Source: Candidatus Omnitrophota bacterium (GTDB lineage: Bacteria; Omnitrophota; Gorgyraeia; Zapsychrales; Fredricksoniimonadaceae). Taken from it: 64,000 nt of DNA. Location: the NCBI GenBank assembly GCA_903944345.1, contig CAJARJ010000020.1:18110-82109 (forward strand), written 5' to 3'. The notes beneath the pieces were generated by a model, which worked only from the letters and a program-made list of their open reading frames with translations, did no database searches and was not told the DNA's origin. How positions within the stretch are numbered: position 1 is the first letter of the stretch; each line of letters starts with the position of its first letter. The position numbers and the translations under genes are program-made. This document shows positions 1 to 24,856 of this stretch, one piece after another.

Positions 1-813
1 CCCCAGTTCATCCGCCGCCCGCTTCAATTCATCCGGCTTCATCGGACGATAATGCCAGATCGGCACATCTTCCATAAAAGAGATCCCTTTACCTTTCACT
101 GTGTGTGCCACGATCAAGGACGGTTTTCCGGACATTAACGGAAGCCGGGCAAACAACGCACTCAGCGCATCAACATCATGCCCATCAACCTCAGTTACCG
201 CCCAGCCAAAGGCCTTCCATTTCTCTGCCATCGGCTCCATCGGGATGATCTTATCCAAATGATCCATCGCCTGAAGCTTGTTATAATCCACAATGACCGT
301 CAAATTATCAAGCCCAACCGAAGGAGCGAATAAGGCCGTTTCCCAAATACTGCCCTCTTGACACTCCCCATCCCCAATCACTACAAAAACTCTGTATAAT
401 TTTCCATCCTTTTTCCCCGCCAACGCGACTCCGGCACCAAAGGGAAGTCCATGGCCCAATGCCCCAGTCGATGCTTCAATCCCGGGAACCTTATGCATAT
501 CCGGATGCCCGCCAAGGATCGTACCCTTACGTCCGAAAGTATCCAAATGCTCCAACGCAAAAAAACCAAGATCCGCAAGGATCGCATATAACGCCACCCC
601 GCCATGACCCTTGCTTAATATGAACCGATCTCGATCAGGTGCCTTAGGATGTTGCGGATCGACCCTGAGAACTCCATAATAAAGAACCGTCAAAACATCC
701 AGCATGGAGAATGAGGTCGGGAGATGCCCTCCGCCCCCATTGCACATGGTTTTAAAAATACTTTGACGCAACTGACGGGCCTTTGCCCCCAACTGCTCAA
801 TTGATAACAGCAT
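1..813 (-). CDS. Transketolase, N-terminal (TPP-binding) subunit of a split transketolase; the 3' end runs off the window
   Basis: Absent from the ORF track because it is open to the window edge. My translation from the ATG at 813..811 reads MLLSIEQLGAKARQLRQSIF...SKGHGGVALYAILADLG...GIEASTGALGHGLPFGAGVALAGK...VVIGDGECQEGSIWE...HTVKGKGISFMED. The SKGH and GDGxxxEG signatures are typical of transketolase N-terminal sections. Confidence 0.85.
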   Translation of the reverse strand, partial: MLLSIEQLGAKARQLRQSIFKTMCNGGGGHLPTSFSMLDVLTVLYYGVLRVDPQHPKAPDRDRFILSKGHGGVALYAILADLGFFALEHLDTFGRKGTILGGHPDMHKVPGIEASTGALGHGLPFGAGVALAGKKDGKLYRVFVVIGDGECQEGSIWETALFAPSVGLDNLTVIVDYNKLQAMDHLDKIIPMEPMAEKWKAFGWAVTEVDGHDVDALSALFARLPLMSGKPSLIVAHTVKGKGISFMEDVPIWHYRPMKPDELKRAADELG

Positions 814-2443
814 GTTTACCTCTCTTCATGAACGCATAAAACCGCCTGATAGGAAGAAAAAACCGGAAAACCCCCGGACTGATCACCATCCAACGGATAA
901 TCCATAGAAAACGCATCTGATACTTGAACATCTCAAGATCAAAAAAGCGCGGATCAGATCTATCGATAAAGGTCCTTTGAAAGCAGTGCTTACAAATAAT
1001 AAATCCGCGCCAGGCAGATGCAGAATGACTCAAATCCAGATAACAATTCTCATTCAGTCCACCGCAAAAACTGCAATGGATGTTCAACACATGCCGACCA
1101 TCTGGTCTTTTGCCCAGCACAAACACCTTGGCATAAAGAGCTCTTGTGCGATATACGCTCTCAAAAATGGCCTTCTTGTACATATAATCATATTCATCTT
1201 CAGAAAGCTTCGTCATATTATAGTGCCTGCTGCTCGGCGACATATGATGTGTCCGACGATCATCAAGCTTTCCGGACCTCACAAGATCATGATAAAGAGT
1301 TGTTCCTGGATAAGGATGGATGGGCGCAAATATAATATCAATCTTGGGGAACTTTCTGGCAAACGCGATCGTCTCTCCCAGCGTCTCCAATGTTTCCGCA
1401 GGATCACCAAAAATAAATCCCCCCTGAATACACAGTTTCGCCTTGATGCAGCCGAGTATCCCCCGCTCGATCTGAGCAGGAGATATCCCTTTCTTCATAC
1501 TCTTGAGGACCGTCGGACTGGCGCTCTCAAAGCCCATGCTCAACAAATAACAACCAGAATCTTTCAACATCGCCAGCAAATCATCATCCAGCGAAGGCAC
1601 TCGCGCCTGACAAAGCCATGGCAGTCCCAGAGTTTTTAGTTCCCTGCACGCTTCTTTAGCCCTCTTCTTGTCCGTAATGAACATTTCATCGGCAATATAA
1701 AGGATATTGACCTTATATGTCTCTACTAAATAACGAATCTCCGCCATAAAATTGGCGATCGATCTGACCCTATAATTACCGCCCGTGATACGGAAACAAA
1801 ACGTACACTGGCTTACACAATCCCGGCTAGACACGGGAAATGCCGGTCTTCTGACAAAATCATTCCCTTGAATGGCACACAGCTCCTGTTCAACATGATT
1901 AACATACTGATCAAGAAAAACACCGTACTCAAATCCCTCGTAATCCGGAAAAGGCAATTCATCTAAAACCTCGATCAACGGGGTCGGCGGCGTCTTTACC
2001 ACCCGTCCATTCTCGAGAAAAGCGATTCCTGTAACACGATGAAAATCCCCTCCGCTGCCAAGTGCCTTTAACAGCAGATCTGTCGTAACCTCTCCCTCTC
2101 CAAGAACAAGAACATCAGGTCTTAATTCAGGTAATATGAAATCAGGGTCTGCTGAAGCGATCGCTCCCCCCAAAAAAATACAGGCTTTAGGGGCTAATTC
2201 ACGAACTGTCTGAATGATCGCTATCATCTGGGGCATATGAATAAAAAGCCCTCCGGTCCCTACTGCATCATAATTGCACGCCAAAAGAACATCTTTAAGC
2301 TTGGATTCCGGATAATGATTTAAATTCAACGCATCAACAGAATATCCCTTCTGTTTCAAATACGCCGATATATACATCACCCCCAAAGGAATGTGTTGAT
2401 AATTCTCCCGGCCATAATTAGGGACTATCAGCAATATTTTCAT
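797..2443 (-). CDS. B12-binding-domain radical SAM enzyme
   Basis: The N-terminus follows the cobalamin-binding pattern (MKILLIVPNYG...IPLGVMYISAYLKQKGY). It is followed by the CxxxCxxC cluster motif (RDCVSQCTFCF). Confidence 0.8.
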   Translation of the reverse strand: MKILLIVPNYGRENYQHIPLGVMYISAYLKQKGYSVDALNLNHYPESKLKDVLLACNYDAVGTGGLFIHMPQMIAIIQTVRELAPKACIFLGGAIASADPDFILPELRPDVLVLGEGEVTTDLLLKALGSGGDFHRVTGIAFLENGRVVKTPPTPLIEVLDELPFPDYEGFEYGVFLDQYVNHVEQELCAIQGNDFVRRPAFPVSSRDCVSQCTFCFRITGGNYRVRSIANFMAEIRYLVETYKVNILYIADEMFITDKKRAKEACRELKTLGLPWLCQARVPSLDDDLLAMLKDSGCYLLSMGFESASPTVLKSMKKGISPAQIERGILGCIKAKLCIQGGFIFGDPAETLETLGETIAFARKFPKIDIIFAPIHPYPGTTLYHDLVRSGKLDDRRTHHMSPSSRHYNMTKLSEDEYDYMYKKAIFESVYRTRALYAKVFVLGKRPDGRHVLNIHCSFCGGLNENCYLDLSHSASAWRGFIICKHCFQRTFIDRSDPRFFDLEMFKYQMRFLWIIRWMVISPGVFRFFLPIRRFYAFMKRGKHAVIN

Positions 2444-2518
2444 ACACTACTGTCTTTCCCTTACTTGAAAGATTCTCAATATCTTCTCCTGTCCTCCGAC
2501 ACAAGCACCCCCAAAACT

Positions 2519-3826: not shown

Positions 3827-3859
3827 TAACGACCACGCCTCTTTTCAACGCACCATTAA

Positions 3860-4927
3860 TCAGATAAAATTCACATGTGCCGGCGGACGTTTAATCTCCC
3901 ACAAATAACGGTTCACCTCATCCATCCGGCAGTTCAATCGGCAGTGCGACGCATCGAAATCCTGCTCGACCCACCGCAGGGAATCCTTGCGCTTTGGCCC
4001 AGTCCAGATCTCTTCAAAGGTATTCTGATAAATATTGCCGTAAGCAAAACGCTCATCGCCCAGATAAACACTGCAGCCCCACACATTCCCGCCGGCATCG
4101 ATATACGACCAGAACGGAAGCGCTATGCAGCGGTTATAAGGCTTGTGCCCTTCATCCCATTTCTTCATGGTGTTCAGACGAAAAATGACCTGAAAGTCTG
4201 ATGCATTCTCTTTCATCAGTTCGTCCTGAAGATACAAATAATCACTGTATTTCACCTGGCTATAAACATTCGTCTGACTTTGGGGATGCTGGGAATACGG
4301 CTTGATCACCAGATAATCCAGTCCAAGGTTCCGGGCCAATCGTGCCAGCGCCACGGCCTCATGATGATTGTCAGGCAAAAGCAGAAGCTGCATGCCGATT
4401 GTGCAGGAATATTTGTTCTCCCGTCGGATCCTCACCGCTTCCTTCAGATTCTCCATCAGACGGGGAAAGTCATTCTCGGTCGTGCGATGAATCTTGGCAT
4501 ACGTGGATGCCGTTGCCCCGTTGATACTGATCTTAATCCATTCCGTAACGCCCAGAATCTTTTCCGAGATTTCCTTCTTCATCAGAACACCATTGGTCGT
4601 GAAAGCCGTATCGATCCCGCTCTTTTTAGTATGCTGCGTAATCTCCACCATATCTTTGTGCAGAAAGGGCTCGCCCTCGCCGGCAAACATCATGCTCCGC
4701 AACCCCAGTCGCCCCAACTCCGACAGTCTTTCTTTCAAAAGCCCTGTTTCCAGAAACCGCCGCTGGTATTCCATGAAATCAAGTGCACAATACACGCACC
4801 GGTGATTACATGCTCCCGCTGGACTTATCTCCATATAAAGCGGATACATCGTCTTCCCCGCCTTCCATTCCGCCAGGCGATCCACATGGTACATCAACTT
4901 GTGGCTGTCGATTTTGTACTTGTCCAT
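3860..4927 (-). CDS. Radical SAM protein with a Cys-rich SPASM/twitch-like C-terminus
   Basis: GACNHRCVYCA is a CxxxCxxC motif. C-terminal cysteines are present (CIALPF...WGCSVY...HCRLNCR). Confidence 0.75.
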   Translation of the reverse strand: MDKYKIDSHKLMYHVDRLAEWKAGKTMYPLYMEISPAGACNHRCVYCALDFMEYQRRFLETGLLKERLSELGRLGLRSMMFAGEGEPFLHKDMVEITQHTKKSGIDTAFTTNGVLMKKEISEKILGVTEWIKISINGATASTYAKIHRTTENDFPRLMENLKEAVRIRRENKYSCTIGMQLLLLPDNHHEAVALARLARNLGLDYLVIKPYSQHPQSQTNVYSQVKYSDYLYLQDELMKENASDFQVIFRLNTMKKWDEGHKPYNRCIALPFWSYIDAGGNVWGCSVYLGDERFAYGNIYQNTFEEIWTGPKRKDSLRWVEQDFDASHCRLNCRMDEVNRYLWEIKRPPAHVNFI

Positions 4928-4935
4928 AACACCTT

Positions 4936-5874
4936 TCAGGAAAGAAGCCTGGTAATATCCTTTAATACCGCCTCAGGCTTGGCCAGTGTGGTGCAGCCAT
5001 CCTTGAAATGAGGACAAATGTTCTCCCGACACGGAAAAAGCTCACAGGAAAAATCCTTGGGATAGAAAGCCACCCCACGTTCATACAAATAGTTTTCCTG
5101 ACAATGCGTTGGTCCGAAAATCACCACAAACGGCTTCTTGAGCGCGATCGCAATATGCATGCCAAAAGAATCGTTGGTCACAAGCAAGCGACATGAATTG
5201 ATCCATTCAAAATAAGCTTCCATATCATTCTGGCCTTGTTGCCAAGATACGGAAAATTTCTTCCCAATCTGCTTCTCGAGTTTTTTCCAATACAACATGG
5301 GCCAGCCCTTTAGCGGCCACTTGTTACCAACAAGATAGTTAAAACCGATATCGAACTTTTCCTTGCCCTTTAGCTGATGCCCGAAAACATATTCCTCACC
5401 CTTCCAATGGGCTCCCACCATGTCAAAAAGGCCTTCCTGCCAATACGCCTTACGGTGACGTTTGCGTTCCAGATCACGACACACATCCAGCACCGCATGT
5501 GTTCCGTCATAGGCTGCCGCCTGACCAGATCGACGATCAAACCGAAAACCATACCGGCGCCAGGCGCTAATAGAATCCGCCAAAGCGCATAATCCCGGAA
5601 CCTTTTCCAGATTGATGACCGTGTCGAACTCCTCCGCCTGCAACTGCAAGACCGAGCTTAAGTCATACCCGAGAATACGATTGATATACGGATTGCCCTT
5701 CAAAATCGGGAAAGCCTTCTCATCGACCAGCCAGGTCACATGAGAATCCTTGTATAGATTAAGAAGAACGGTCGTACGCAACACATCCCCATAGCTCGTG
5801 AAATTGCTAATATCCGCATCCAGAGTCTCGGAATACCCCACCTTGATAATCAAGACCTTATGTTTCTTTTCCAT
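4936..5874 (-). CDS. Glycosyltransferase family 9 (heptosyltransferase-like)
   Basis: KVLIIKVGYSETLD lies at the N-terminus and NDSFGMHIAIALKKPFVVIFGPT near the C-terminus; both are GT9 hallmarks. I trimmed the start to the ATG at 5874 (MEKKHKVLII) to limit overlap with the upstream gene. Confidence 0.7.
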   Translation of the reverse strand: MEKKHKVLIIKVGYSETLDADISNFTSYGDVLRTTVLLNLYKDSHVTWLVDEKAFPILKGNPYINRILGYDLSSVLQLQAEEFDTVINLEKVPGLCALADSISAWRRYGFRFDRRSGQAAAYDGTHAVLDVCRDLERKRHRKAYWQEGLFDMVGAHWKGEEYVFGHQLKGKEKFDIGFNYLVGNKWPLKGWPMLYWKKLEKQIGKKFSVSWQQGQNDMEAYFEWINSCRLLVTNDSFGMHIAIALKKPFVVIFGPTHCQENYLYERGVAFYPKDFSCELFPCRENICPHFKDGCTTLAKPEAVLKDITRLLS

Positions 5875-6763
5875 CAGACCTCGCCTTGTTCTCATCAAAC
5901 CGAATATCAACTGATGTATACCCGAACTGCTGGTAATGGTTATTCTTGATCTTCACATCACACTCGCTGCACAAACCAAAATTCGGACACGGCAGATGCG
6001 TGCTCGGGAACTCAAAATGCGAGGCTGTGATATTCCCTAACGCGCGCTCCCGACGGTTGAAATACAAATCCGAATGACAAAGATAAACCATGCCATCCGG
6101 CGCCACGGGCATAACTGTATTGCGACATGTGACCTCAATGCCCTGCCGCCTTCCATCTACAGATCCCGGATATTTGAGCTGACCATACATCTTGCCGTCA
6201 TAAAGCCCCAAAAAATCCTTAGCGCGCAATTCTACGCCTTTTTCTTTTGCGTAAACCTTCATAAAAGAGATCTCATCCTCAGACAAAGCAGGATGCGTTA
6301 AATAATACAATCCGATACTGAGAATATCATTCAGACCCGCAATGCGATCCACCAGCTCTTTGAAATCATTCTGCCCTTTGTGAAAACTCACCCGAATTGT
6401 CGGGTATGGTGCCGGACGCTTATTCCAGTCCAACGTCTTCAACTTCAGGAAATATTCCCGGTTCAGAAACGGCGGCAACGCGGTCATGATATCGACCTTA
6501 TGCCGCACATTCTCCATAATCTCGGCAATCCCCTTGTAGAGGAACGGTTCCCCGCCCTGAAGCGAAATAGGCACATCTGTGGGAAGTTCGAGCCGGTTCA
6601 ATGCTTTTATCCACTGATCAGGCGACAAATAAGACGCATCCGGCTGTCCAATAAATTTCGATCCATGATGACTCGTGATGCAATACGGACACTTAAGAAA
6701 ACACTTATCCGTCAGATAAATACCAACGTAATCATAATCTGGAGGGAATATTATTTTTTCCAT
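5858..6763 (-). CDS. Radical SAM protein (SPASM-like C-terminus)
   Basis: YLTDKCFLKCPYCI is a CxxxCxxC motif. The C-terminal Cys cluster is LCHSDL...PCPNFGLCSECD. The start is placed at the ATG at 6763 (MEKIIFPP), which has an AGGA-type RBS upstream; the ORF-track start is 6859. Confidence 0.7.
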   Translation of the reverse strand: MEKIIFPPDYDYVGIYLTDKCFLKCPYCITSHHGSKFIGQPDASYLSPDQWIKALNRLELPTDVPISLQGGEPFLYKGIAEIMENVRHKVDIMTALPPFLNREYFLKLKTLDWNKRPAPYPTIRVSFHKGQNDFKELVDRIAGLNDILSIGLYYLTHPALSEDEISFMKVYAKEKGVELRAKDFLGLYDGKMYGQLKYPGSVDGRRQGIEVTCRNTVMPVAPDGMVYLCHSDLYFNRRERALGNITASHFEFPSTHLPCPNFGLCSECDVKIKNNHYQQFGYTSVDIRFDENKARSDGKET

Positions 6764-6901
6764 GATCGAGCCTATCCTGTCCCGTGTGTCCTTATCATCA
6801 AAAAATACTTTACCAGGCCTCAAAATACAAAAACGGCAGTTCCAGCCGCGACCAGACACTTCAGAGGCCGTTTGGCAGAATCTTTGTTATCCTGTTAATC
6901 T

Positions 6902-7465
6902 TCATACACCTGCCACCATCGACTGCCCCACTAGTGCTGAACTTCTGGCCAACTCCTCAATAACATTAACCACACGCAAAACTTCAGACCCATCGGAAAC
7001 AGCTTGCTCACGGCAAACAAGCACAACACCATCCATCATCGTCTTAACCAAGGCTTCTGTCCGCATCATTTCAACACCATCCCCGTACGATTCCCGGGCT
7101 GTCAGCTCAATAAGCCCCGCCAGATCCGAATCGCCCAAAATATAAAATTTCCGCACACCCGTGTCATGCTCAGCTTTAAGAAGCGCCGCAAGACTCTTTT
7201 TAACCAACCCGATAGAATGAACCGTTTTGATCGTATACCGCACCGACTTTTGCATCTTCTCCGCAAAGCCCTTGGGGGTCAACAAATACTCGACTTTCTT
7301 CTTGTTGAGCTGGCGGATACGAATATAGCCCTTGGTGACCAGGCGGCGGATCAAAAGATTGGTCATGCCCAGAGACAAGTTCATCCGCCGCGAAAGAACG
7401 CGTTGATTGGCCCCCAGGTCACCACCAATAATATTGATCAGTTCAAATTCGCGTTCATCCAGCAC
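6902..7465 (-). CDS. Winged-helix (MarR-like) transcriptional regulator with an uncharacterised C-terminal domain
   Basis: The N-terminal 70 aa (FELINIIGGDLGANQRVLSRRMNLSLGMTNLLIRRLVTKGYIRIRQL...YLLTPKG) follow the wHTH recognition-helix plus wing pattern. Confidence 0.55.
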   Translation of the reverse strand: MLDEREFELINIIGGDLGANQRVLSRRMNLSLGMTNLLIRRLVTKGYIRIRQLNKKKVEYLLTPKGFAEKMQKSVRYTIKTVHSIGLVKKSLAALLKAEHDTGVRKFYILGDSDLAGLIELTARESYGDGVEMMRTEALVKTMMDGVVLVCREQAVSDGSEVLRVVNVIEELARSSALVGQSMVAGV

Positions 7466-7508
7466 AGATAAAACCTGTTGAAAGTGTTGAAACTTCTAAA
7501 AAAGACCG

Positions 7509-7529
7509 ATTGTTCATTTACTGAACAAT
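7509..7529. promoter_or_regulatory. Perfect 8-bp inverted repeat (ATTGTTCA-N5-TGAACAAT), a candidate operator upstream of the wHTH regulator gene
   Basis: Read directly from the sequence. It lies 44 nt upstream of the regulator start codon (7465), in the 223-nt intergenic gap. Confidence 0.3.
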
Positions 7530-7688
7530 TATAGGCACTCCCCCAGGAAAGTCAAAGCTTTAGAAATACAAAATTTACAAAGTCAAAACGGCATGATTGA
7601 AATAGCGGGAAAGTAAAGGAATAAATGCCAGAACCGCAATGCGCCCGGAAAGAATCGGTCGCCATGATTACTAAATTATCGCTTAGAG

Positions 7689-9134
7689 TCATAGACAACA
7701 GGAATAATTCCGAGCTTTGGCGTCAAATGTTTTATTGTAAGAGTTATAAAAAGCGACGATCTGCTCGATATCCTCCCCCGTAAACTCATTCGTTCTGTAC
7801 CCTAATGATGGTCCTGTTTGGTGCGCTCTAAGAAAATCCGAAAAATTTCTTCTATCCGTCGTGATGCCATATTCTTCGGCATCAAGATTCCAGGGAGAAC
7901 ACGGTTCCATTTCAATACAACAGGCCTTGATATTGATTTGTTTAAATTGCATCCTGAGCAGCCTGATTAGTTTCAAAGTTTCTTTAATGTCATCCCTGGT
8001 TTCAGAAGCCAACCCGGCCGTGAAGAAAACCCGTACTTTAATATCTCTCAAAAAAACATATTTTAGAGTGTCCAGCAGCTCAGTATTGGAATAATAGTAC
8101 CCTTTATTTTGCCTTCTCACCCTTTGAGAACCGCATTCAGGAGAAATTTCCAGAACAGAAGAACATAAGTCAAATGTCATGGCAAACTCATCTATGAATT
8201 GTCTGGAAGGAAGGGCCCAACATTCGAACCCCAAGTTCAGTTTAAGCCCCTCGGCCCGAATCTTTCTAAACAGCTCAATATAGTAATCACCTTTGGGAAG
8301 CGGGTCAAAGCAAGTATGCCATCTTGTGATCCCATATTCATGGCTAGCCCTCTTCAGTTCTCGGACAACCGCACCTTGACTTATAAAAATAATTTCTGAA
8401 CGATGATTGATTATTTTCTGTGCGACCCTTGAACCTCCGCAAAAAGAACAGTTCACAAGACAGCCGCGGCCGCAGTTGTAATAAAAAGTAGCCGGAACAT
8501 TTGATAATAAACCGTCTGCCTTGTTCAAAGGATCCTCAACTCTTAAATAATAATCATAATTCTTGAGGAATTTAAAGTTGGCGAACTCCATAGCATCGAT
8601 AATTTGCTGAGTCGTATTGTACGTTAACCTACTTGACAGAACGGCTCCCCCCTCGCGAAAGAAAAGATTGGCAACCAGATGAAAATCTTTATTTCCAGAG
8701 AAAATCCGGACGAGCAAATCAAGCAAAGGCTGTTCGGATTCCCCGGTTATAATAAAATCAATTTCAGGGAAGCTGGCCATAATCTCCGCGGCATAATAAG
8801 ATGCGGTAAACCCTCCGAGAATGATTCTTGAGCAAGGAATCGCTTCTTTCAAAAGCCTGCAAAGCTCCATCACTTTTACGGATTGACTATGCCAATGAAG
8901 ATTTAGACAGAATACAGTGCGTTTGTTTTCAATTAAATAAGCAGCCAAATCAAAATCCGGATTTAAAATTCTCTCCAACTCCACATTTAAGATCTCACTC
9001 AAGATATAATTTCTGTCAAGAAAACTTGCCAACCCAACCATGCCGATGGGAATTAACGGCGTATATACTGTTTTATCATCCTCAGCAGATGTATGAATAA
9101 AAGTAACCGTATTATCAGTCCTCATATCAGCCAT
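7689..9134 (-). CDS. B12-binding-domain radical SAM enzyme
   Basis: The N-terminal layout is B12-binding-like. The radical SAM motif is CGRGCLVNCSFCGG. Confidence 0.8.
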   Translation of the reverse strand: MADMRTDNTVTFIHTSAEDDKTVYTPLIPIGMVGLASFLDRNYILSEILNVELERILNPDFDLAAYLIENKRTVFCLNLHWHSQSVKVMELCRLLKEAIPCSRIILGGFTASYYAAEIMASFPEIDFIITGESEQPLLDLLVRIFSGNKDFHLVANLFFREGGAVLSSRLTYNTTQQIIDAMEFANFKFLKNYDYYLRVEDPLNKADGLLSNVPATFYYNCGRGCLVNCSFCGGSRVAQKIINHRSEIIFISQGAVVRELKRASHEYGITRWHTCFDPLPKGDYYIELFRKIRAEGLKLNLGFECWALPSRQFIDEFAMTFDLCSSVLEISPECGSQRVRRQNKGYYYSNTELLDTLKYVFLRDIKVRVFFTAGLASETRDDIKETLKLIRLLRMQFKQINIKACCIEMEPCSPWNLDAEEYGITTDRRNFSDFLRAHQTGPSLGYRTNEFTGEDIEQIVAFYNSYNKTFDAKARNYSCCL

Positions 9135-9299
9135 AAATCCTTAATAAGTCTCAACAGGAAGACGTCAGGGCCCCCTTCTTGCCACGCGGAAAGCAATACA
9201 TATTGAATTAAATTATAACGAAGAAAGTTAAGAACTGATATTATAATCTCATGTAATGTGGCTCTCTCAGACAATTCCGATACCAAAACCTGAAATCCT

Positions 9300-11480
9300 A
9301 TGCCTGCATTAAAAGCCCTTTACCATTATTTGAGTAGCCCGCCCATCAAAACCTGGCCCTGGCTGGGAGTCCTGTTTCTAGCCTGGATTTTTATGTACCG
9401 CGGCTTTCTGGACGGCACCTTCTTTGCCTCGATGGAAACAACCCCCCAGTATTTCTACGCTCTCTATTTTACCGACTGCCTTTCCCAAGGCATCTTTCCT
9501 CTATGGGATCCTTACCACAACTGGGGAGTCGCCGACAATATCGACCCTCTCTGGGTGGGACTCTATAACCCGTTTTATCTCTTAATCCTGCTTTTACGTC
9601 TGGCCGGAGTCTCTGCCGAAACCTCCTATGCCTTCTTCATGCACTTCTATGTTCTTGCAAGCATCCTTGGTTTTTATCTTCTGTGCCGCCAGCTCATGAA
9701 AGACACCACCTCGGCTCTTCTGGCCGCAGCCGCATTGCTGTTCTCTTCTTTGAGCATCATTCCTTTTTTGACCATCTGGCCGCAACTGATCTTTACCCCC
9801 ATAGTCTGGTTTCTGTACTTTCTTGTTATCTTTTGCAAAGCGGCGAACAATAACGGACGTCGAATGGCTGCAATCGGAATAACCTTCTGCTCCATGATCA
9901 TTGTTTCAACCTATATCCCTCTTTTTGCCCTCACATTTTTTTGTTGTCTACTGCTTGGTTTTCTGCTCTGTGCACCGCGCCAGACTTTTTCTTTTCTTGG
10001 AACGATACTCTCTTTTGTCCGCCAGAACGCTCTTGTGTGCGTCTTTCTGCTGGGCAGTTTCCTGCTGGCCTGCGTGCCGATTGTCCGCTGGTATCTGTCT
10101 TCAAAAGATCCGGGTTTTCTTATGGATATTGCCCGGGGAGGCACCTCCGATGGGCCGTCGGGCATTTCCCTGATCGGGCTTAACCTCAACACCATCTGGG
10201 GGGAAGGCTCCTGGATGGAGCTTTTCAGCGATCAGGAAATAGGCGCCCAACTCTATACCCAGGTTTCATTTACAATCTTCTTTTTTCTTTCGCTGGCACT
10301 GCCCGTGGCTGTTCCGGCTTTATGGCGCGCACTGTTTGTCGCGGCCTTCCTTCTTCTGCTGTTTCTTTCGGCCAATGTTTTCCCGCTTCATCGCTGGGCT
10401 TATGAACACATCTTTTTCGTCCGCTTCTTTCGTAATTATTTCTACCTGGCTCCCTGTCTTTTGGGATCGTTGATCATCCTTGCACTGCTCCCGCTGAAAT
10501 CTTTTCTTTTAACTCAAGGCGCCCGGCGCCCGCTACGCCTTATGTGGGTCACCCTCCTCCTTGTTGTCTGGATCATTTTTCTTAAGCAATTTTCCAATGT
10601 CCACCCTATGACTTACTGGACAGCAGGCATCCTCCTGCCAACCTTGTCCCTTATCCTTCTTGACATCCTGCCATTCAACAGCCGGGCCGCCCGATTTCTA
10701 CTGTTGAGCGTGCTGATCGCCCAGCCGGCTGCCGTGTTCTTTCCCGATTTCTTTAACAATTTCTACTCACGCCAACCCCTGAAAGAATTTGTCGGACACA
10801 ACAACCAAATGAGCTACACCCGCCCCGACAGAGATAATGATCCTTACCGCCGCGCCGCCCATGTCACTGAAAAAATGGCCCGGGACGATTCCGGATTCTC
10901 CGAACAAGGTTACATGGGCAGTGCCTATGCCCACGCTCTGCTGACACATATCCCTTACCCCGTTCTTCAGTCTTATGTCAAAAACAAGTTTGTCCTTTAC
11001 GATCGCGTGGAATATTCCGATCCGGACAAACCCGACTGGCAAAAGCTTGCGCACTCACTAACAGGAGAATCCTCAATAGCAATCGCTGGCTCGGCACAAG
11101 GGGCAGGCGGCAACCGGCAACCTGGCGCTCGAGCAGAAATCCTCTCGCAAAATTCCCCCGGATTCGAGGTAACCGCATTCGATGTCAATAAGATCATCGT
11201 GCAAACAGACTTCTCCGCAGACAAATTCCTGGTCTATAACGACAACTACCACCCCGGCTGGCGGGCCTATATTGATGGAAAGAAATTCCCGCTTTACCGT
11301 GCAAACCTGGCGTTTAAAGGCATCTGGATTCCCGGCGGGAAACATACCCTGAAACTCGTTTACGGAGCCTGGTGGGAACCGGCGCTAAACTGGAGCCTGA
11401 TAGGATTATTTCTATTGTTTATGTTATTAACCGCAAGAAATACTGTTTTGATTGAAAGCAAAAATGAAGAAGCTTGCTAA
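9300..11480 (+). CDS. YfhO-like polytopic membrane protein (putative GT-C type glycosyltransferase)
   Basis: It has at least 12 hydrophobic segments. The extracytoplasmic C-terminus carries the YfhO-type motif YNDNYHPGWRAYIDGKKFPLYRANLAFKGIWIPGGKHTLKLVY and a final TM segment. Confidence 0.55.
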   Translation: MPALKALYHYLSSPPIKTWPWLGVLFLAWIFMYRGFLDGTFFASMETTPQYFYALYFTDCLSQGIFPLWDPYHNWGVADNIDPLWVGLYNPFYLLILLLRLAGVSAETSYAFFMHFYVLASILGFYLLCRQLMKDTTSALLAAAALLFSSLSIIPFLTIWPQLIFTPIVWFLYFLVIFCKAANNNGRRMAAIGITFCSMIIVSTYIPLFALTFFCCLLLGFLLCAPRQTFSFLGTILSFVRQNALVCVFLLGSFLLACVPIVRWYLSSKDPGFLMDIARGGTSDGPSGISLIGLNLNTIWGEGSWMELFSDQEIGAQLYTQVSFTIFFFLSLALPVAVPALWRALFVAAFLLLLFLSANVFPLHRWAYEHIFFVRFFRNYFYLAPCLLGSLIILALLPLKSFLLTQGARRPLRLMWVTLLLVVWIIFLKQFSNVHPMTYWTAGILLPTLSLILLDILPFNSRAARFLLLSVLIAQPAAVFFPDFFNNFYSRQPLKEFVGHNNQMSYTRPDRDNDPYRRAAHVTEKMARDDSGFSEQGYMGSAYAHALLTHIPYPVLQSYVKNKFVLYDRVEYSDPDKPDWQKLAHSLTGESSIAIAGSAQGAGGNRQPGARAEILSQNSPGFEVTAFDVNKIIVQTDFSADKFLVYNDNYHPGWRAYIDGKKFPLYRANLAFKGIWIPGGKHTLKLVYGAWWEPALNWSLIGLFLLFMLLTARNTVLIESKNEEAC

Positions 11481-12231
11481 ATACATTTCAGGCTCTGCAG
11501 GTTTTATGCTTCTGTGTGCAGGAATCATCATCTGGCTGACCGGCGACTTCAAAAAAGCCTATATCCGCAGAGCTGACGTGACTACCGCTTGGAGCGAAAA
11601 CTTCATTACCGGGCTGCAATCCGGCTCGGAGATATCCCCCAGAACGCTGAAGCTGGCAGCCTTGTACTATAAAAATCTCTCTGCGGCTCTGCCGTCACTC
11701 CCGGGGCCGTATGAAGCCATTGCTTATTGTTACGCGAAGCTGGGTATGAACCAGGCTGCGGAACGCTATCTGGAACAGGGCCGACAAGCCTGCCCGGATT
11801 GTTTCTGGTTTTCTTATAATTCAGCGGTTCTTGCTCTGCGCAACAAAAACAAGCGGGCCGCCGAGGAGCATCTGTCCAGGGCCTTAACAGTTTCCGGAGA
11901 ACGCCTGCTCAAAAGCGTGATCCGCGCCCCTCTGTCCCGATTACCACAAGAGCAACGACAACTCCTCTACCAGCAAGCCATCCTTTTTGCCCGACAGGTG
12001 CGCGGCGAAGCAATGACTGTCCTGATTGGTCTGCGGCTGGAGCGGAAAGATCCGACAGGCGCACGTACCCTTGCCGAACAGGCGATGGCCGACCCGATGG
12101 TTGATAACAAAACCTTCTTCTTGCGCGTCCTTATTGATCAATCCTCTGCCTCGGTGCAGGACAAACAGCCGGATATTGTGATCCATCCCTGGGCAAAAAC
12201 AATACCGGTCGGCAAAGAAAACCATTTCTAG
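11452..12231 (+). CDS. Membrane-anchored helical-repeat (TPR-like) protein
   Basis: An N-terminal TM segment (FMLLCAGIIIWLTG) is followed by Ala/Leu-rich helical hairpins (AIAYCYAKLGMNQAAERYLEQG). The function is not assignable. Confidence 0.35.
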   Translation: MKAKMKKLAKYISGSAGFMLLCAGIIIWLTGDFKKAYIRRADVTTAWSENFITGLQSGSEISPRTLKLAALYYKNLSAALPSLPGPYEAIAYCYAKLGMNQAAERYLEQGRQACPDCFWFSYNSAVLALRNKNKRAAEEHLSRALTVSGERLLKSVIRAPLSRLPQEQRQLLYQQAILFARQVRGEAMTVLIGLRLERKDPTGARTLAEQAMADPMVDNKTFFLRVLIDQSSASVQDKQPDIVIHPWAKTIPVGKENHF

Positions 12232-12242
12232 GTCTGATGCCT

Positions 12243-13136
12243 TCAACCCTTTTGTTTGCGTACCAGAACCCAAAGCACGTTCCGTGGCAATAGCCAATCC
12301 AGCGGCAGAGACACAGCAGCAATGGCTCCTTTGGGAGCAAACGGACGATACAGCCATTGCGGAGTTTTCCTGATCCTCAAGTGACGATACAGGCTCGGGA
12401 TAACCAGCGGGATCGTGTCAAAACCCGAGTCGACAACCGTCAGTCCAAGCTGGCGGCAGAAAGTTTCGACCGATTTCATATCGAAATGCCACAAATGCCT
12501 GGGAGGATCAAGAAAGAAGTTGCAGGCCCCAAAGAGTTTACTCGCCGAAGATGAAATGTCCGGCAGAACTATATAAAAGCTGTTGGCCCCGTGATCGATC
12601 ATTCTGTTTACAAAGACTTCCGGCTCCCTGATATGCTCCAGAACATGCCGTAACACAACCAGTCCGTCTTTCATCCCGGGAAAACCTTCCAGAGAGTAAT
12701 TATTGTAATCAATAGAATAATACGGGATATCCGCGGTTTCCAGTAAACAGGGCTTCTGCCCACAGGAGTCTGCGGCGGAAACCCTGGCTCCGGAGGCGCG
12801 AATAATCCTGGCGAAATCTCCTGTGCCACAGCCGATATCCAGAAACTCGCCGGGTGAAAAACTCCTCCGGATACGGGCCAATTCCCGGCGCAGAAGAAAA
12901 TTCTTCAGAAACAGGTGCAGATCCGAGGTGGCCTGACGCATCATTCCGCCCATTTCATTCTGATAATACTGCGCCAGATCTTCCGGAAACGGCGCGGTTT
13001 TCTTGACCCCGCAGGAATCGCATTCCAACAGGCTAAAAGGTGTTGCGGTCACCAGATCACACGTCTGCAGAAACACCCGGCTAAACCGGCCCTGACGGCA
13101 GATTGGACAAATGCTGTTATCTGTTGCATCGGCCAT
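12243..13136 (-). CDS. Class I SAM-dependent methyltransferase with an N-terminal zinc ribbon
   Basis: CPICRQ...CDSCG forms a CxxC pair. Motif I is LDIGCGTGDFA. Confidence 0.75.
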   Translation of the reverse strand: MADATDNSICPICRQGRFSRVFLQTCDLVTATPFSLLECDSCGVKKTAPFPEDLAQYYQNEMGGMMRQATSDLHLFLKNFLLRRELARIRRSFSPGEFLDIGCGTGDFARIIRASGARVSAADSCGQKPCLLETADIPYYSIDYNNYSLEGFPGMKDGLVVLRHVLEHIREPEVFVNRMIDHGANSFYIVLPDISSSASKLFGACNFFLDPPRHLWHFDMKSVETFCRQLGLTVVDSGFDTIPLVIPSLYRHLRIRKTPQWLYRPFAPKGAIAAVSLPLDWLLPRNVLWVLVRKQKG

Positions 13137-13163
13137 GACTCATACTCCTTGTGCATATCCCTG

Positions 13164-14039
13164 TTATTTATAAAACACCCAGAAAGAAAACCCGATCCAG
13201 CAAAGCACACTTGTTATCAAAGGAAAATCCGCAAGCAGAATTTCGTCAACATCTTCGGTCTTGCCGACAACGTGAACCAGATACAGATATCGAAACACTC
13301 CATAAACAACAAAAACCAGCGAATAAATCATCCAGTAACCATGCACCCTGGCGACTATGTCCGGAGATATTGTGTACAGCCCGTAAAAAACAATAGCCAG
13401 TGTCGCCGAAATCATGATCAGTTGATCGAGAAAATATATCGTGTAGTGCCGTAAAGCGCCCCGGTGCTCCTCTGCTCTGTCTCCCAGCGTTCTCATCTCC
13501 GATCTTCTTTTGGTGAAACCAAGAAAAAGTGACAGCAGAAAGACACAAAGCTGCAGCCACCCCGAGGGGAGAACCCCAACGACTACCGCGCCTGCCCATA
13601 TCCGTATACAAAAACCAAGCGCGATACAGCCCACATCCAGCAATACCAGTTTCTTCCAAAAGAAAGTGTACATAAAATGCAGTAACAGATACAACCCTGC
13701 CAGACAGAAAAACAGGCCACCAAGAAACAGCGAAAGCAGCAATCCGCCGCACACAAGAACAACCCCTAGCAAAACAGCAATGCGTCGGCTGATCCTGCCG
13801 CTGGCAATAGGCCGTTGACATTTCTTCGGATGGGCCCGGTCCCTGTGCATGTCTTCCAGATCATTGACAACATACACCCCGCTGGAGACAAGGCAGAACG
13901 CAACCAAAGCCAGCAAAGCGGACGAAAAAGATGACAGGCTTACAAAGCGGCCGGAAAAAAGAAGCGGCGCCAGAACAAAAAGGTTCTTGATCCACTGTTT
14001 GGTGCGCATTAGCCTGAAAACATCCATCAAAAAACTCAT
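13164..14039 (-). CDS. UbiA-family prenyltransferase, decaprenyl-phosphate phosphoribosyltransferase-like
   Basis: KQWIKNLFVLAPLLFSG and the Asp-rich motif NDLEDMHRDRAHPKKCQRPIASGRIS (NDxxDxxxD followed by RPIASG) resemble the DPPR synthase subgroup. The start is trimmed to the ATG at 14039, which forms an ATGA overlap with the upstream stop and has an AAGGGGGA RBS. Confidence 0.7.
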   Translation of the reverse strand: MSFLMDVFRLMRTKQWIKNLFVLAPLLFSGRFVSLSSFSSALLALVAFCLVSSGVYVVNDLEDMHRDRAHPKKCQRPIASGRISRRIAVLLGVVLVCGGLLLSLFLGGLFFCLAGLYLLLHFMYTFFWKKLVLLDVGCIALGFCIRIWAGAVVVGVLPSGWLQLCVFLLSLFLGFTKRRSEMRTLGDRAEEHRGALRHYTIYFLDQLIMISATLAIVFYGLYTISPDIVARVHGYWMIYSLVFVVYGVFRYLYLVHVVGKTEDVDEILLADFPLITSVLCWIGFSFWVFYK

Positions 14040-15208
14040 TCGTCCCCCTTTTTTGCTCCGGCAGGAACATTTTGAACATAGGACAATATCTCTTTCACTG
14101 CCTGTAGTAAGCGCACGGTAAGTTCCGGCGATCTCAGGCAGGGATACGTCCCATGACATTGCGGAACAGCATAACCAAAGAAAGTACAAGGTGAGCAAAG
14201 AAGACCGGAATCCACAAAAAATGTCCTGGTGTTTTCCGGAGCCCATTTATTCCTGTTCCCTGGACCAAAGACAGCCACAGAAGGAACCGACAATGCCGCA
14301 GCGATATGTAGCAGCCCCGAATCCTGACCGATAAAACAACGAGCCCCGGCGACCAGGGCCACACTTTGGGCCAGGCTGGTCTTGCCGACAAAACTGACCA
14401 CGCCAGGACTCTTCATCTCATCTAATAGCTTCCCCGCGAATACCTTCATGTCCCCGCCTCCGAGCAAGACGACATTCAGTCCACTGTCAATAATCAGTCG
14501 CCCCATCAATACGAGCTGTTCCGAGGAAAAACGCCTAGCCGCGGAACTTCCTCCCAATGCCAGCGCCGCGTACGGCCGGGACAAAGATGCTTTTGCCCAG
14601 GCAATGTCGGGGGCAGAGACAGCATATGATCCTTCCAGATGCAATCTCCCCCGTAACCCCAAAAGGGAAAAAAGCCGGCTAAAATTATGCAGCTCATAAG
14701 CTTCGTGAGAATATTCAACGGCTGTATAAAAAAGACCCGCCCGTTCAGGACGAGTGCCAAAGCCGATCGTCCTGCGGGAGCGAATCAGGCGACTTAAAAC
14801 AGCACTCAGACAGTGCCATTGCTCGGTATCAACAACCCAGTCATATGAATTCCGGCCAACCGCCGTTAACTCACCTAAAACATCGTAACAAAAAATCTGA
14901 CCGCAAAGTCCGGGCTGCGAACGAAATACAGCCACGTTCCTCTTTTCGCACAAAATGTCAAGTGTGTGTCCCCCACGCTTTAACTCGCGCAGGACTGGCA
15001 ACAGCAAAACCGCATCCCCAATACCGCCAGGCCGAATAATCAGAACTTTCATCGGGCCCGAGGGAAGAACGGAAGAATCCGTCCGACTCCTCCCTAAACA
15101 ACGACAAACAATGGATCCCAGGGTGTGATCAAGCAGCTTGATCCCTTTAAGCGGCCAGCTCCCCTGCGAACGAAAAATATCCCACAGAGTAATCGGCCTC
15201 ATAAACAA
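14036..15208 (-). CDS. Glycosyltransferase family 9 (heptosyltransferase-like)
   Basis: The supporting motifs are KVLIIRPGGIGDAVLLLPVLRELK and GQDSGLLHIAAALSVPSVAVFGPG. Confidence 0.7.
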   Translation of the reverse strand: MFMRPITLWDIFRSQGSWPLKGIKLLDHTLGSIVCRCLGRSRTDSSVLPSGPMKVLIIRPGGIGDAVLLLPVLRELKRGGHTLDILCEKRNVAVFRSQPGLCGQIFCYDVLGELTAVGRNSYDWVVDTEQWHCLSAVLSRLIRSRRTIGFGTRPERAGLFYTAVEYSHEAYELHNFSRLFSLLGLRGRLHLEGSYAVSAPDIAWAKASLSRPYAALALGGSSAARRFSSEQLVLMGRLIIDSGLNVVLLGGGDMKVFAGKLLDEMKSPGVVSFVGKTSLAQSVALVAGARCFIGQDSGLLHIAAALSVPSVAVFGPGNRNKWAPENTRTFFVDSGLLCSPCTFFGYAVPQCHGTYPCLRSPELTVRLLQAVKEILSYVQNVPAGAKKGDE

Positions 15209-15217
15209 GAAACCATC

Positions 15218-16693
15218 TTAATCTCCCAGAAGAACACGGGGCAGTTTATGCGTGAGCAGTCCGCGAACATGGTCAAGGGTTGGCTGGCCAAACTTGCGCA
15301 GAATCATATCCTGATAACGGGAAGAACCAAAATACTGCATAAAAGCATTGTCCCGAAAACGCAGAATCTCGGCGGAAGAAAGATATTTGCTGGGCAGCGG
15401 AACCGTATGCCGGTTAAATTGAGAATAACCCTCCCAGCAGGAGGGCAAAGGCAAAGCGTCGCGCACTGCCGTATCATACAAAGCCGCCCCTGGATAAGCC
15501 ATGGTCACATAAAAATTGGCATATTCGCAGTTAAGTTCAACAGCCAGATCCAGAGTCTCCTGCATGGTCGACATATCATCGTCCGGCAGACCAAACATGT
15601 AATTACCAATCACATGAATGCCCGCCTCGTTGGTTTGACGAATGACCTGAAGAATCTTTTCCCGGTCGAATCTTCCCTTGGCAACCCCTTTACGTACTTC
15701 CGTGTTGGCCCCCTCAATGCCATAGGCAATCCAGCGCACGCCCGCGCGAAAAAGTTTACGGAGAATATTTTCATTAACGGTATCAATACGCGCATACACC
15801 CAGATATTAATATCGTATTTGCGCTCGGCCAGACCCAGGCAAACCTCGTCCATCCGGCGGGGATTGACCACAAAAAGCTCGTCAACAAACTTGAAATTTC
15901 TGACCCCGTATTTCCTAACCAGAAGATCAATCTCCTCGAGAACCTTGCCGGCAGAACGAAAACGAATTCCCCCCCCGCCGTAAAGTGCATGAATATTGCA
16001 GTAACTGCAGTTGTAGGGACATCCCAGGCTTGTGTAAACCATGGCATAGGAAGCCCGATCCTCAAGATGCCCGAAACAATGCCAGTTATGCGCGCGGTAA
16101 CGATCCATCGGCAAAAGATCCCAGGCCGCCAGAGGCAGAACATCCAGATCCTGAAGCTGCCGGGCCCAGCCCCGGTCAACAACCTTATCATTCTGCTTAT
16201 ACCAGAGCCCCTGAATGTTACCCGTATCCCCGCCATTCCTGAAGGCCATGACGAGGTCGGTAATACACAAAAATGTTTCACCCCGGCAAAGAAAATCTAC
16301 CGGCTCTTCCCGTAGGGTGCGTTCGGGAACACCGGAAGGATGAATCCCGAAAATAACCGAACGGACATTAGTGGACTGTTGGCGCAGTTCTTCAAGGACA
16401 GCGCGCACCGCCGGCATTTTGGGTGTCGAGGAAACACTTGGGTTGCCGCCTATGGCCCCCACGGCACACAAAAGCGGTTGAAGTTCCACCGCCCGGCGCA
16501 CAGCTTCCCGCGGCCCGAGTTGTTGGGCATCCGCATCAATAATCGCAACCGTAAGCCCGCGCTCGCGCAAATAGGCAGCCAGCAAAGCCAGCCATAAAGG
16601 TGTCTCAACGGCGGCATACTCATTGGCCAAAGCCCCGTAGATCGGCTCCTTGCCGCCGGGATTGACAAGAACAACATCCAGCGGAGATCCCAT
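15218..16693 (-). CDS. B12-binding-domain radical SAM enzyme
   Basis: VVLVNPGG...PLWLALLAAYLRERGLTVAIIDA is the B12-binding-type N-terminus. The radical SAM motif is LGCPYNCSYCN. Confidence 0.8.
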   Translation of the reverse strand: MGSPLDVVLVNPGGKEPIYGALANEYAAVETPLWLALLAAYLRERGLTVAIIDADAQQLGPREAVRRAVELQPLLCAVGAIGGNPSVSSTPKMPAVRAVLEELRQQSTNVRSVIFGIHPSGVPERTLREEPVDFLCRGETFLCITDLVMAFRNGGDTGNIQGLWYKQNDKVVDRGWARQLQDLDVLPLAAWDLLPMDRYRAHNWHCFGHLEDRASYAMVYTSLGCPYNCSYCNIHALYGGGGIRFRSAGKVLEEIDLLVRKYGVRNFKFVDELFVVNPRRMDEVCLGLAERKYDINIWVYARIDTVNENILRKLFRAGVRWIAYGIEGANTEVRKGVAKGRFDREKILQVIRQTNEAGIHVIGNYMFGLPDDDMSTMQETLDLAVELNCEYANFYVTMAYPGAALYDTAVRDALPLPSCWEGYSQFNRHTVPLPSKYLSSAEILRFRDNAFMQYFGSSRYQDMILRKFGQPTLDHVRGLLTHKLPRVLLGD

Positions 16694-17559: not shown

Positions 17560-17597
17560 CGAATGGGGATTATATCACGAAAAACATTCTTGCTGCG

Positions 17598-23749: not shown

Positions 23750-24856
<1,107 letters not shown>

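Follow-up and report, generated by a model that had tools for sequence, protein, structure and literature searches.

The first 16.7 kb of a 64,000-nucleotide stretch of a Candidatus Omnitrophota bacterium (GenBank assembly GCA_903944345.1, contig CAJARJ010000020.1, positions 18,110 to 82,109; the whole stretch is referred to here as the window) hold five genes encoding radical S-adenosylmethionine (SAM) enzymes, set among genes for glycosyltransferases (GTs), methyltransferases and a transketolase-like enzyme. An initial annotation of this DNA had interpreted the region as an envelope-glycan cluster with radically tailored sugars or lipids. In this study, genes were identified from open reading frame (ORF) listings and profile scans, with Pfam gathering scores (29.5, 32.1 and 21.5 bits for the Radical_SAM, B12-binding and SPASM profiles PF04055, PF02310 and PF13186, respectively) and curated NCBIfam cutoffs as thresholds. 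All gene coordinates assigned previously were reproduced, for the five radical SAM genes, both glycosyltransferase family 9 (GT9) genes and the remaining genes listed. The window also matches an ENA metagenome scaffold (L001; BUCK21-1_SAMEA6872937_METAG-scaffold_4, 335 kb) at full identity across 12,443 bp, on which the locus runs at least 9.2 kb further to the left of the window start. The genes of the locus are as follows.

L001 12470–13393, directly left of the window: C-terminal subunit (TK_C) of a split transketolase-like thiamine diphosphate (ThDP) enzyme
1–812, minus strand: N-terminal subunit (TK_N) of the same enzyme, 280 amino acids (aa), cut at base 1
797–2443, minus strand: B12-binding-domain radical SAM enzyme A, 548 aa; B12-binding 54.4 bits, Radical_SAM 58 bits
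2519–3811, minus strand: FkbM-like methyltransferase, 430 aa; weak match of the C-terminal part only to Methyltransf_21 (27.7 against a cutoff of 22.7)
3860–4927, minus strand: radical SAM/SPASM enzyme, 355 aa; Radical_SAM and SPASM (31.8 against 21.5)
4936–5874, minus strand: GT9_a, 312 aa; weak partial match to Glyco_transf_9 (PF01075), 40.5 bits
5858–6763, minus strand: small radical SAM enzyme E, 301 aa, ORF start possibly at 6859; Radical_SAM 40 bits
6902–7465, minus strand: winged helix-turn-helix (wHTH) regulator, MarR-EPS-like, 187 aa; HTH_24 29 bits, TIGR04176 MarR_EPS 48.6 against a cutoff of 88
7689–9134, minus strand: B12-binding-domain radical SAM enzyme B, 478–481 aa; B12-binding 38.0 bits, Radical_SAM 44 bits
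9300–11480, plus strand: YfhO-like polytopic membrane protein, putative glycosyltransferase of the GT-C type; YfhO (PF09586) 29.8 against a cutoff of 28.5
11464–12231, plus strand: membrane-anchored tetratricopeptide repeat (TPR) protein with one N-terminal hydrophobic segment; TPR_14 24 bits
12243–13136, minus strand: class I SAM methyltransferase with a zinc ribbon (N-terminal CxxC at residues 10–13 and 39–42); Methyltransf_23 56 bits
13164–14039, minus strand: UbiA-family polyprenyl-phosphate phosphoribosyltransferase of the decaprenyl-phosphoribose (DPPR) synthase type, 291 aa; NF008977 and NF008978 above cutoff
14036–15208, minus strand: GT9_b, 381–390 aa; Glyco_transf_9 95 bits over 230 of 247 profile positions
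15218–16693, minus strand: B12-binding-domain radical SAM enzyme C, 491 aa; B12-binding 54.2 bits, Radical_SAM 67.5 bits
16693–17559, minus strand: methylenetetrahydrofolate reductase (MTHFR); Pfam MTHFR 294 bits

The gene content described in the initial annotation is therefore largely borne out. Its three B12-binding-domain radical SAM genes carry both domains above the Pfam gathering scores, its two GT9-like genes are present (one as a weak partial match and one as a full match), and so are the FkbM-type and zinc-ribbon methyltransferases, the UbiA phosphoribosyltransferase, the YfhO-like GT-C and the wHTH regulator, with the FkbM match weak, the YfhO match marginal and the regulator below cutoff. 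Of the two radical SAM genes that had been called SPASM-like, 3860–4927 passes the PF13186 cutoff; 5858–6763 has no SPASM match, and for this gene the label is plausible from five C-terminal cysteines. The split transketolase is represented in the window by its truncated N-terminal subunit, the C-terminal subunit lying just outside. On L001, the left-hand 9 kb or so encode TK_C and, directly after the transketolase-like genes, a short-chain dehydrogenase/reductase (SDR) and a zinc-dependent alcohol dehydrogenase, followed by a fourth B12-binding-domain radical SAM enzyme (D), a TIGR04372-family glycosyltransferase scoring above cutoff, a PglK/MsbA-like ATP-binding cassette (ABC) flippase and a glucose-1-phosphate cytidylyltransferase (RfbF). 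The right-hand border is formed by MTHFR, beyond which lie a 1980-aa surface protein, glyceraldehyde-3-phosphate dehydrogenase and conjugation- or pilus-like genes. A phmmer search with the six radical SAM proteins of the locus as queries revealed no further radical SAM gene in the 47 kb that make up the rest of the window.

The region previously described as a single cluster consists of two units, a conserved operon and a strain-variable cassette. The first unit (9300–17559) comprises, in this order, the genes for MTHFR, radical SAM C, GT9_b, UbiA and the zinc-ribbon methyltransferase, together with the convergent GT-C/TPR pair, in which the TPR gene overlaps the 3′ end of the GT-C gene (11464 against 11480). 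The operon is defined by overlapping stop and start codons: the MTHFR stop overlaps the radical SAM C start in TAATG (16691–16695) and the GT9_b stop overlaps the UbiA start in ATGA, with the true UbiA start at 14039. The second unit is a low-GC cassette to the left of approximately position 7200 that begins within the wHTH gene.

Comparison with two close relatives (L176 and L177), in which radical SAM C is 93% identical, delimits both units. These relatives maintain the same gene order from the giant surface protein through the operon to the TPR and YfhO-like genes, with 83–84% nucleotide identity to window positions 9350–26692 and UbiA likewise called as 291 aa. The 5′ half of the wHTH gene (7196–7495) is still matched at 85–93%, and everything to its left differs, placing the cassette junction inside this gene at approximately 7196–7241. 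Beyond the junction, one relative carries GmhA and an epimerase and the other a Wzm-type ABC permease; between themselves, the two share 99.8% identity as far as a position within the wHTH gene, after which they are unrelated, so that three close relatives hold three different cassettes at the same site. In the place of radical SAM B, both relatives (17600–20021) encode instead an AAA_14/DUF4143 ATPase and a DUF1016/YhcG nuclease-like protein, marking a second indel hotspot between operon and cassette. The GC content of the cassette is 39–47%, except for the radical SAM/SPASM (49.7%), wHTH (49.8%) and TK_N (50.6%) genes, against approximately 52% in the rest of the window; that of radical SAM B is 0.41. 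The best promoter-like site of the region (11/12) lies just upstream of the wHTH gene at 7555–7528, in a promoter and terminator scan whose site counts did not exceed the shuffled expectation.

Conserved flanks with differing cassettes at one site identify this as a hypervariable surface-polysaccharide locus. O-antigen and capsule loci such as the enterobacterial rfb locus between galF and gnd likewise combine a fixed site, conserved flanks and a lower-GC cassette; here, on the other hand, the exchange junction lies inside a wHTH gene and radical SAM genes are exceptionally numerous in the cassette. Conservation as a single syntenic cluster, which the initial annotation had proposed to check, applies in part: synteny is strong within the sub-modules and does not extend over the whole 16.7 kb, as expected of a hypervariable glycan island. 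The pairing of MTHFR with radical SAM C extends beyond L176 and L177 to a locus with a 68%-identical homologue (L174), where the pair is followed by an epimerase, a wHTH gene and legionaminic/pseudaminic-type genes, and at 58% identity MTHFR lies three genes away. This association may reflect a supply of methyl groups to a methylation-heavy locus, or coincidence.

All five radical SAM proteins of the window and D contain the CxxxCxxC motif. The PF04055 profile matches the five at 40–67 bits, above its gathering score, PF02310 matches A, B and C above its cutoff, and D has precomputed matches to both. B12-type architecture is thus confirmed at the domain level for A to D, bringing the locus to four B12-type enzymes and six radical SAM enzymes overall, and the four may use cobalamin. 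Pairwise scores among them are only 32–82 bits; they are deeply diverged and therefore not recent duplicates.

Every radical SAM protein of the locus scores below the curated cutoffs of all NCBIfam families, whether housekeeping or specialized. The best matches are HpnJ for A (171 against a cutoff of 578), TIGR04190 for B (186 against 500), BchE for C (145 against 481, with HpnJ at 143 also far below its cutoff), the ladderane-type family for D (101 against 360) and a tungsten-cofactor maturase for the 355-aa radical SAM/SPASM enzyme (86 against 380). Among the named B12-type equivalogs, the cutoffs of HpnJ, BchE, HpnR, PhpK, the methyl-coenzyme M reductase glutamine methylase, the ladderane-type family, AprD4 and TIGR04190 are all missed, as are the housekeeping cutoffs for HemN (23.5 against 325), MiaB/RimO (27 against 251), MoaA (54 against 284) and BchE. 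The grouping with well-known families such as HemN, MiaB or BchE that would have separated these genes from their neighbours was not found, nor was one with HpnJ or HpnR. A chance juxtaposition of housekeeping radical SAM genes is ruled out by these unmet cutoffs together with the conserved linkage described below.

Among proteins of solved structure, A, C and D match AprD4 and MgmA (9ccb) best in sequence, over the radical SAM core only, and their N-terminal domains align with those of the cobalamin enzymes CysS and TsrM; B has no sequence match in the PDB. An AlphaFold2 model of A (mean predicted local distance difference test (pLDDT) 90.7) superposes best on TsrM, followed by AprD4, MgmA, OxsB, CysS and TokK. 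The initial annotation had proposed C-methylation by the B12-type enzymes. The nearest solved relatives do include the methylases TsrM, MgmA, CysS and TokK, whereas the best-scoring profile models, HpnJ and BchE, are of non-methylases. Furthermore, AprD4, a sugar diol-dehydratase without cobalamin binding (PMC12931638), is equally close in the radical SAM core, and methylation is for this reason the majority expectation only; C-methylation is plausible by analogy with the solved methylases.

In A, the cysteines C209/C213/C216 and C457/C460/C484/C487 are invariant across 23 homologues. Its C-terminal region (residues 457–548) consists of an invariant CxxC...CxxC beta-ribbon followed by poorly conserved hydrophobic or amphipathic helices (503–547), a combination that hints at an extra metal site, membrane association and perhaps a lipid-linked substrate. 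The small enzyme E has its CxxxCxxC motif at residues 53–60, five C-terminal cysteines including CxxxxxCxxC and no PF13186 match. It belongs to a rare family, with 380 representative clusters at E ≤ 1e-3 and 43 at E ≤ 1e-30 among 1.84 billion, in contrast to the thousands of relatives of the adjoining 355-aa enzyme.

The genomic contexts of these enzymes elsewhere link them to surface sugars. Homologues that are 45–70% identical to A are invariably surrounded by nucleotide-sugar genes (HldE, GmhA, DegT, TylC3-type C-methyltransferases and NeuB/NeuC). The family of C is large (6508 hits at E ≤ 1e-30), and homologues are found within O-antigen-like or nonulosonic-acid loci in L171, L172, L174 and L175; outside L174, their neighbours include genes for E1-type ThDP enzymes, DegT, Wzt/Wzy or Wzx and sulfotransferases. 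The claim that this is an envelope-glycan locus to which the radical SAM enzymes belong is upheld by these observations, since homologues of three of them, including the 355-aa enzyme described below, recur in glycan loci of other lineages. Because of this recurrence in nucleotide-sugar, O-antigen-like and nonulosonic-acid loci, together with the GT9, GT-C, flippase and cytidylyltransferase content, we conclude that the region is probably a surface-glycan island of this Omnitrophota bacterium, in which a conserved operon is joined to a horizontally exchanged cassette for a heptose-derived nucleotide sugar. The best-named homologues of its proteins, 47–66% identical, by themselves make an Omnitrophota-like source probable. 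Several observations weigh against this conclusion. Neither GmhA nor HldE was found in the 26 kb read of this genome (a further 8.8 kb of the scaffold lies outside coverage), and the link to heptose is consequently made by homology to other loci only. Distant relatives of A (80 genome loci, at most 37% identity) have no neighbours in common with it, and one homologue of C (L170) lies outside any glycan context.

Within the conserved operon, the clearest assignment is that of UbiA, which passes both DPPR synthase equivalogs (NF008977, 250.1 against 234; NF008978, 214.7 against 207). The YfhO-like protein matches only the last 68 of 835 profile positions and has approximately 13 hydrophobic segments. 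In the mycobacterial decaprenyl-phosphoribose/arabinose route, the UbiA-family enzyme Rv3806c is likewise combined with GT-C enzymes of the Emb/Aft type. The Omnitrophota locus resembles this route in its UbiA equivalog and in having a GT-C-like protein 2 kb away in the conserved part, and differs in that neither a DprE1/DprE2 epimerase pair nor a phosphatase was seen here and that genes for a B12-type radical SAM enzyme, a GT9 and a methyltransferase show translational coupling with UbiA. A sugar donor linked to polyprenyl phosphate is all that the UbiA/GT-C pair suggests. UbiA would make a pentose-type donor of this kind, which radical SAM C, GT9_b and the methyltransferase would modify. Transfer from this donor, outside the cytoplasmic membrane, would fall to the GT-C/TPR pair.

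Both GT9 proteins fall below the cutoffs of the heptosyltransferase I, II and III equivalogs (for example, 80 against 185). Each carries a C-terminal cluster of four cysteines (289/294/299/306 in GT9_a and 338/341/351/357 in GT9_b) that recalls a metal-binding finger, and TibC/Aah-type protein heptosyltransferases, considered in view of these clusters, were not found in the general NCBIfam scans. Candidate acceptors are an LPS (lipopolysaccharide) core, towards which the GT9 enzymes had pointed in the initial annotation, some other polymer, or a protein, for instance the giant surface protein. The 1980-aa surface protein (17598–23540, minus strand) contains a papain-like C1 peptidase domain, PKD domains and six InlB-type B-repeats, and lies directly upstream of the glycan operon, an adjacency kept in close relatives; it is a possible glycosylation target. 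That the glycan is placed on proteins (this surface protein, pilins or an S-layer) rather than on an LPS core would change the acceptor only and is compatible with a surface-glycan island. We regard a protein acceptor as possible, if on balance doubtful. The conserved adjacency of the surface protein, a pilin-like gene and secretion genes within 10–20 kb and a window that contains no lipid A or core genes all favour it, as does the combination of a DPPR-type UbiA with a GT-C, on which pilin arabinosylation in Pseudomonas aeruginosa is based. Against it, GT9 enzymes are familiar mainly from LPS cores, and no oligosaccharyltransferase family of the PglB, PglL or TfpW type was detected. The pilin-like protein, which has a phage-tail-collar domain (27179–28102), is encoded within a minus-strand region (24993–39241) where TraU, a TraC/TraG-like ATPase and TrbI are mixed with E and F proteins of type II secretion systems and type IV pili and a secretin; together these genes resemble those of some kind of conjugation or pilus apparatus.

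The cassette contains a conserved module that the initial annotation had overlooked, centred on the 355-aa radical SAM/SPASM enzyme. This enzyme belongs to a large family (4968 hits at E ≤ 1e-10) with members from Omnitrophota, Planctomycetota and Scalindua, among others; the top 120 are 64–74% identical and 355–382 aa long, nearly all of them exactly 355. In the Omnitrophota protein, the C-terminal region has four cysteines only (267, 285, 329 and 333), which suggests one auxiliary cluster of a twitch-like kind. Its nearest solved sequences are BlsE and DesII, both of which act on nucleotide-linked sugars, and the top fold match of its structural model (pLDDT 83.5) is DesII, with a template-modelling score of 0.62–0.66 and BlsE also high.

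Among 80 metagenome loci fetched for this family, 43 of at least 8 kb were used to count genes within 8 kb of the radical SAM gene. HldE is a neighbour in 34 of the 43, TK_C in 29, TK_N in 26, GmhA in 25, an HldD-like epimerase in 18 and a small methyltransferase in 14, and most of the 43 also contain a second SPASM-like radical SAM gene. The commonest order is epimerase, HldE, GmhA, radical SAM, TK_N and TK_C. The arrangement in the window, in which E, GT9_a and the radical SAM/SPASM gene precede the transketolase-like genes, is repeated in one of these loci (L132), where a YfhO-like gene comes next, and the order of the first three genes also occurs on a contig (P0016) with a 45%-identical homologue of A. 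Two further loci (L119 and L105) have a GT9 upstream of the radical SAM/SPASM gene in a looser order and without the flanking small radical SAM gene. A cultured carrier, the sulfate reducer Solidesulfovibrio carbinolicus DSM 3852, has the module on its 133-kb plasmid pDCAR1 (NZ_CP026539.1 67846–96907; L173), with genes, in this order, for a NeuB-family protein, an HldE-like kinase, a hypothetical protein, a SIS/GmhA protein, the radical SAM enzyme (C3Y92_RS20620, 55% identical) and two B12-type radical SAM enzymes. A divergent operon encodes the transketolase subunits (RS20665/RS20670), FabG, methyltransferases, PseF and PseB, and the plasmid carries a further B12-type radical SAM gene. These observations indicate that the 355-aa enzyme and the transketolase-like enzyme jointly constitute a conserved supplement to the heptose pathway.

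The known ADP- and GDP-heptose pathway (GmhA, HldE/HddA, GmhB and HldD, with WaaC/WaaF) and its GT9 heptosyltransferases serve LPS cores, capsules and S-layer glycans. GT9-fold transferases occur in the present locus as well, and related loci place the radical SAM gene directly after GmhA/HldE (25–34 of 43), with an HldD-like epimerase in 18 of 43. The known pathway, however, includes neither a radical SAM nor a ThDP enzyme, and neither GT9 here reaches a heptosyltransferase cutoff.

The transketolase-like enzyme is itself unusual. Its NCBIfam transketolase matches are below cutoff, and both subunits show approximately 50% similarity to an active enzyme, the Carboxydothermus split transketolase (6yak). 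Alignment with 6yak/6yaj and human transketolase indicates that the ThDP-binding GDG...N motif, the cofactor-activating glutamate and the catalytic histidines are kept, the glutamate in 35 of 35 linked homologues. On the other hand, the equivalents of Escherichia coli S385, H461, D469 and R520, which bind the substrate phosphate and the C2 hydroxyl and include determinants of stereochemistry, are V, G, L and T in the partner C-subunit of this locus. The same four residues are lost in 34 of the 35 homologues linked to the radical SAM gene (L091–L169), with R358 and H473 kept, and about half of these proteins are shortened to approximately 165 aa, leaving the Pyr domain. The only canonical transketolase copy (L115) sits at another place in its locus. 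Protein engineers mutate the D469, H461, R520 and S385 sites so that transketolase takes non-phosphorylated or non-hydroxylated aldehydes. To judge by these residues, the split enzyme is probably no ordinary transketolase and should not be filed as EC 2.2.1.1.

A simpler chemistry within the same island would have the transketolase supply sedoheptulose-7-phosphate to GmhA/HldE and the radical SAM enzymes methylate, epimerize or deoxygenate an ordinary heptose or hexose, with no extension or branching of the chain. The transketolase-like genes do adjoin GmhA and HldE, the consumers of sedoheptulose-7-phosphate, the ThDP-binding and catalytic residues are intact, the subunits resemble an active split transketolase, and the nearest structural relatives of A are mostly methylases. 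The loss of the pocket residues nonetheless argues against plain supply of sedoheptulose-7-phosphate and for ketol transfer to a non-standard acceptor, as do the shortened homologues and the separate location of the canonical copy, and the SDR and zinc-dependent alcohol dehydrogenase next to the transketolase-like genes fit a keto product that needs reduction. We consider the simpler chemistry unlikely.

Given the gene content, domains, linkage, altered pocket and cassette exchange observed here, we infer the chemical steps of the cassette as follows. The 355-aa DesII/BlsE-like enzyme would abstract a hydrogen from a sugar carbon, giving a carbonyl or an otherwise activated sugar. The transketolase-like enzyme would then attach a ketol unit of two carbons to an acceptor outside the canonical range, bound unlike an ordinary sugar phosphate, extending or branching the chain, and the SDR and zinc-dependent alcohol dehydrogenase would reduce the ketol product. 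Radical SAM enzymes A and D and the FkbM-type methyltransferase may decorate the sugar, C- and O-methylation being the likeliest modifications. Transfer of the sugar would fall to GT9_a and the TIGR04372 glycosyltransferase, and the PglK-like ABC transporter would flip or export the lipid-linked glycan. Alternatively, carbon–carbon extension could take place at the sugar-phosphate stage, ahead of a GmhA-type isomerization, following the logic of the lincosamide C8 sugar. We propose, tentatively, that the radical SAM/SPASM enzyme and a transketolase without its phosphate site, acting on the heptose pathway, constitute an undescribed route to C9-or-longer or C2-branched heptose-derived sugars that are C-methylated by cobalamin-dependent radical SAM enzymes.

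Sugar-chain extension and C2-branching have precedents. In the formation of the lincosamide C8 sugar, the transaldolase LmbR is followed by GmhA-, HddA-, GmhB- and HddC-like steps, and ThDP enzymes act as YerE in the yersiniose pathway and as AviB1/AviB2. The present locus and its relatives are similar in placing a carbon–carbon bond-forming enzyme beside heptose-type activation genes and reductases after a ThDP enzyme, and E1-alpha/beta ThDP pairs accompany homologues of radical SAM C in L171 and L172. The difference is that the enzyme here is derived from transketolase, rather than being of the transaldolase, acetolactate synthase or E1 type, and is paired with a radical SAM enzyme.

By sequence and fold, the nearest relatives of the radical SAM enzymes are sugar-directed enzymes of antibiotic pathways (DesII, BlsE, AprD4 and B12 methylases of the GenK/Fom3 type). 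DesII is a TDP-sugar deaminase/dehydrogenase, BlsE a cytosylglucuronate decarboxylase and AprD4 a diol dehydratase. AprD4 and AprD3 exemplify a radical reaction at a sugar ring with a subsequent reductase step, the same logic as that proposed here. Identity to these enzymes is only 15–20% with scores far under the cutoffs, and the context here is a chromosomal glycan island. The nearest characterized relatives, AprD4, DesII, BlsE, TsrM, CysS and TokK, all come from antibiotic pathways, which would suit a gene cluster whose secondary metabolite is an antibiotic of the aminoglycoside, nucleoside or sugar type. Such a cluster is improbable given that the locus encodes two GT9s, a GT-C, a DPPR synthase, a PglK-like flippase, an EPS-type MarR and RfbF, that homologous loci carry Wzy, Wzt/Wzm, Wzx and NeuB, that the cassette is exchanged at a fixed chromosomal site and that no resistance, polyketide or nonribosomal peptide synthase or aminocyclitol genes are present. 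Tailoring of membrane lipids of the hopanoid, ladderane or ether-lipid type, which the initial annotation had allowed for and which could be read from the HpnJ, HpnR and ladderane-type NCBIfam matches, the UbiA-family enzyme and the hydrophobic C-terminal tail of A, is very improbable and finds no support in the adjoining genes, as the lipid-family scores are 3–10 fold under their cutoffs, genes for squalene, hopene, fatty acids or ether lipids are absent from the 26 kb, the UbiA belongs with the phosphoribosyltransferases rather than the lipid prenyltransferases, and sugar genes are the neighbours in every homologous locus.

Elsewhere in the window, a second glycan locus (42450–50434, minus strand) encodes RmlB, RmlD, RmlC and RmlA, the full dTDP-rhamnose set, together with an NAD-dependent epimerase, a fusion of a methyltransferase with a family 2 glycosyltransferase and a DUF2079 membrane protein. 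It is followed by a PAS histidine kinase and a response regulator (50450–53136) and a tRNA gene (53299–53369).

A hypervariable surface-polysaccharide island with nucleotide-sugar tailoring and assembly by GT9, GT-C and flippase proteins is a known frame. What is new, in that it is not described in the literature found, is the radical SAM content (six genes of five unrelated types) and the conserved trio of a radical SAM enzyme, a remodelled transketolase and the heptose pathway. Full-text searches found no paper linking radical SAM enzymes with heptose, transketolase, nonulosonic-acid or O-antigen loci, and a paper on the Kuenenia S-layer glycan and an Omnitrophota genome preprint contain nothing specific on the module. 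As far as the literature found indicates, sugar-directed radical SAM chemistry is known almost only from antibiotic pathways, and here such enzymes lie in the ordinary surface-glycan island of an environmental bacterium. This predicts new surface-sugar chemistry on abundant uncultivated anaerobes and offers a concrete substrate hypothesis for radical SAM and ThDP enzymology, for which plasmid pDCAR1 of S. carbinolicus DSM 3852 provides an experimental handle on the module. If the proposal is true, a whole class of envelope sugars tailored by radical chemistry would be spread widely across anaerobic phyla, including the Omnitrophota, the Planctomycetota with their anammox members and the Desulfobacterota, and would so far have gone chemically unseen.

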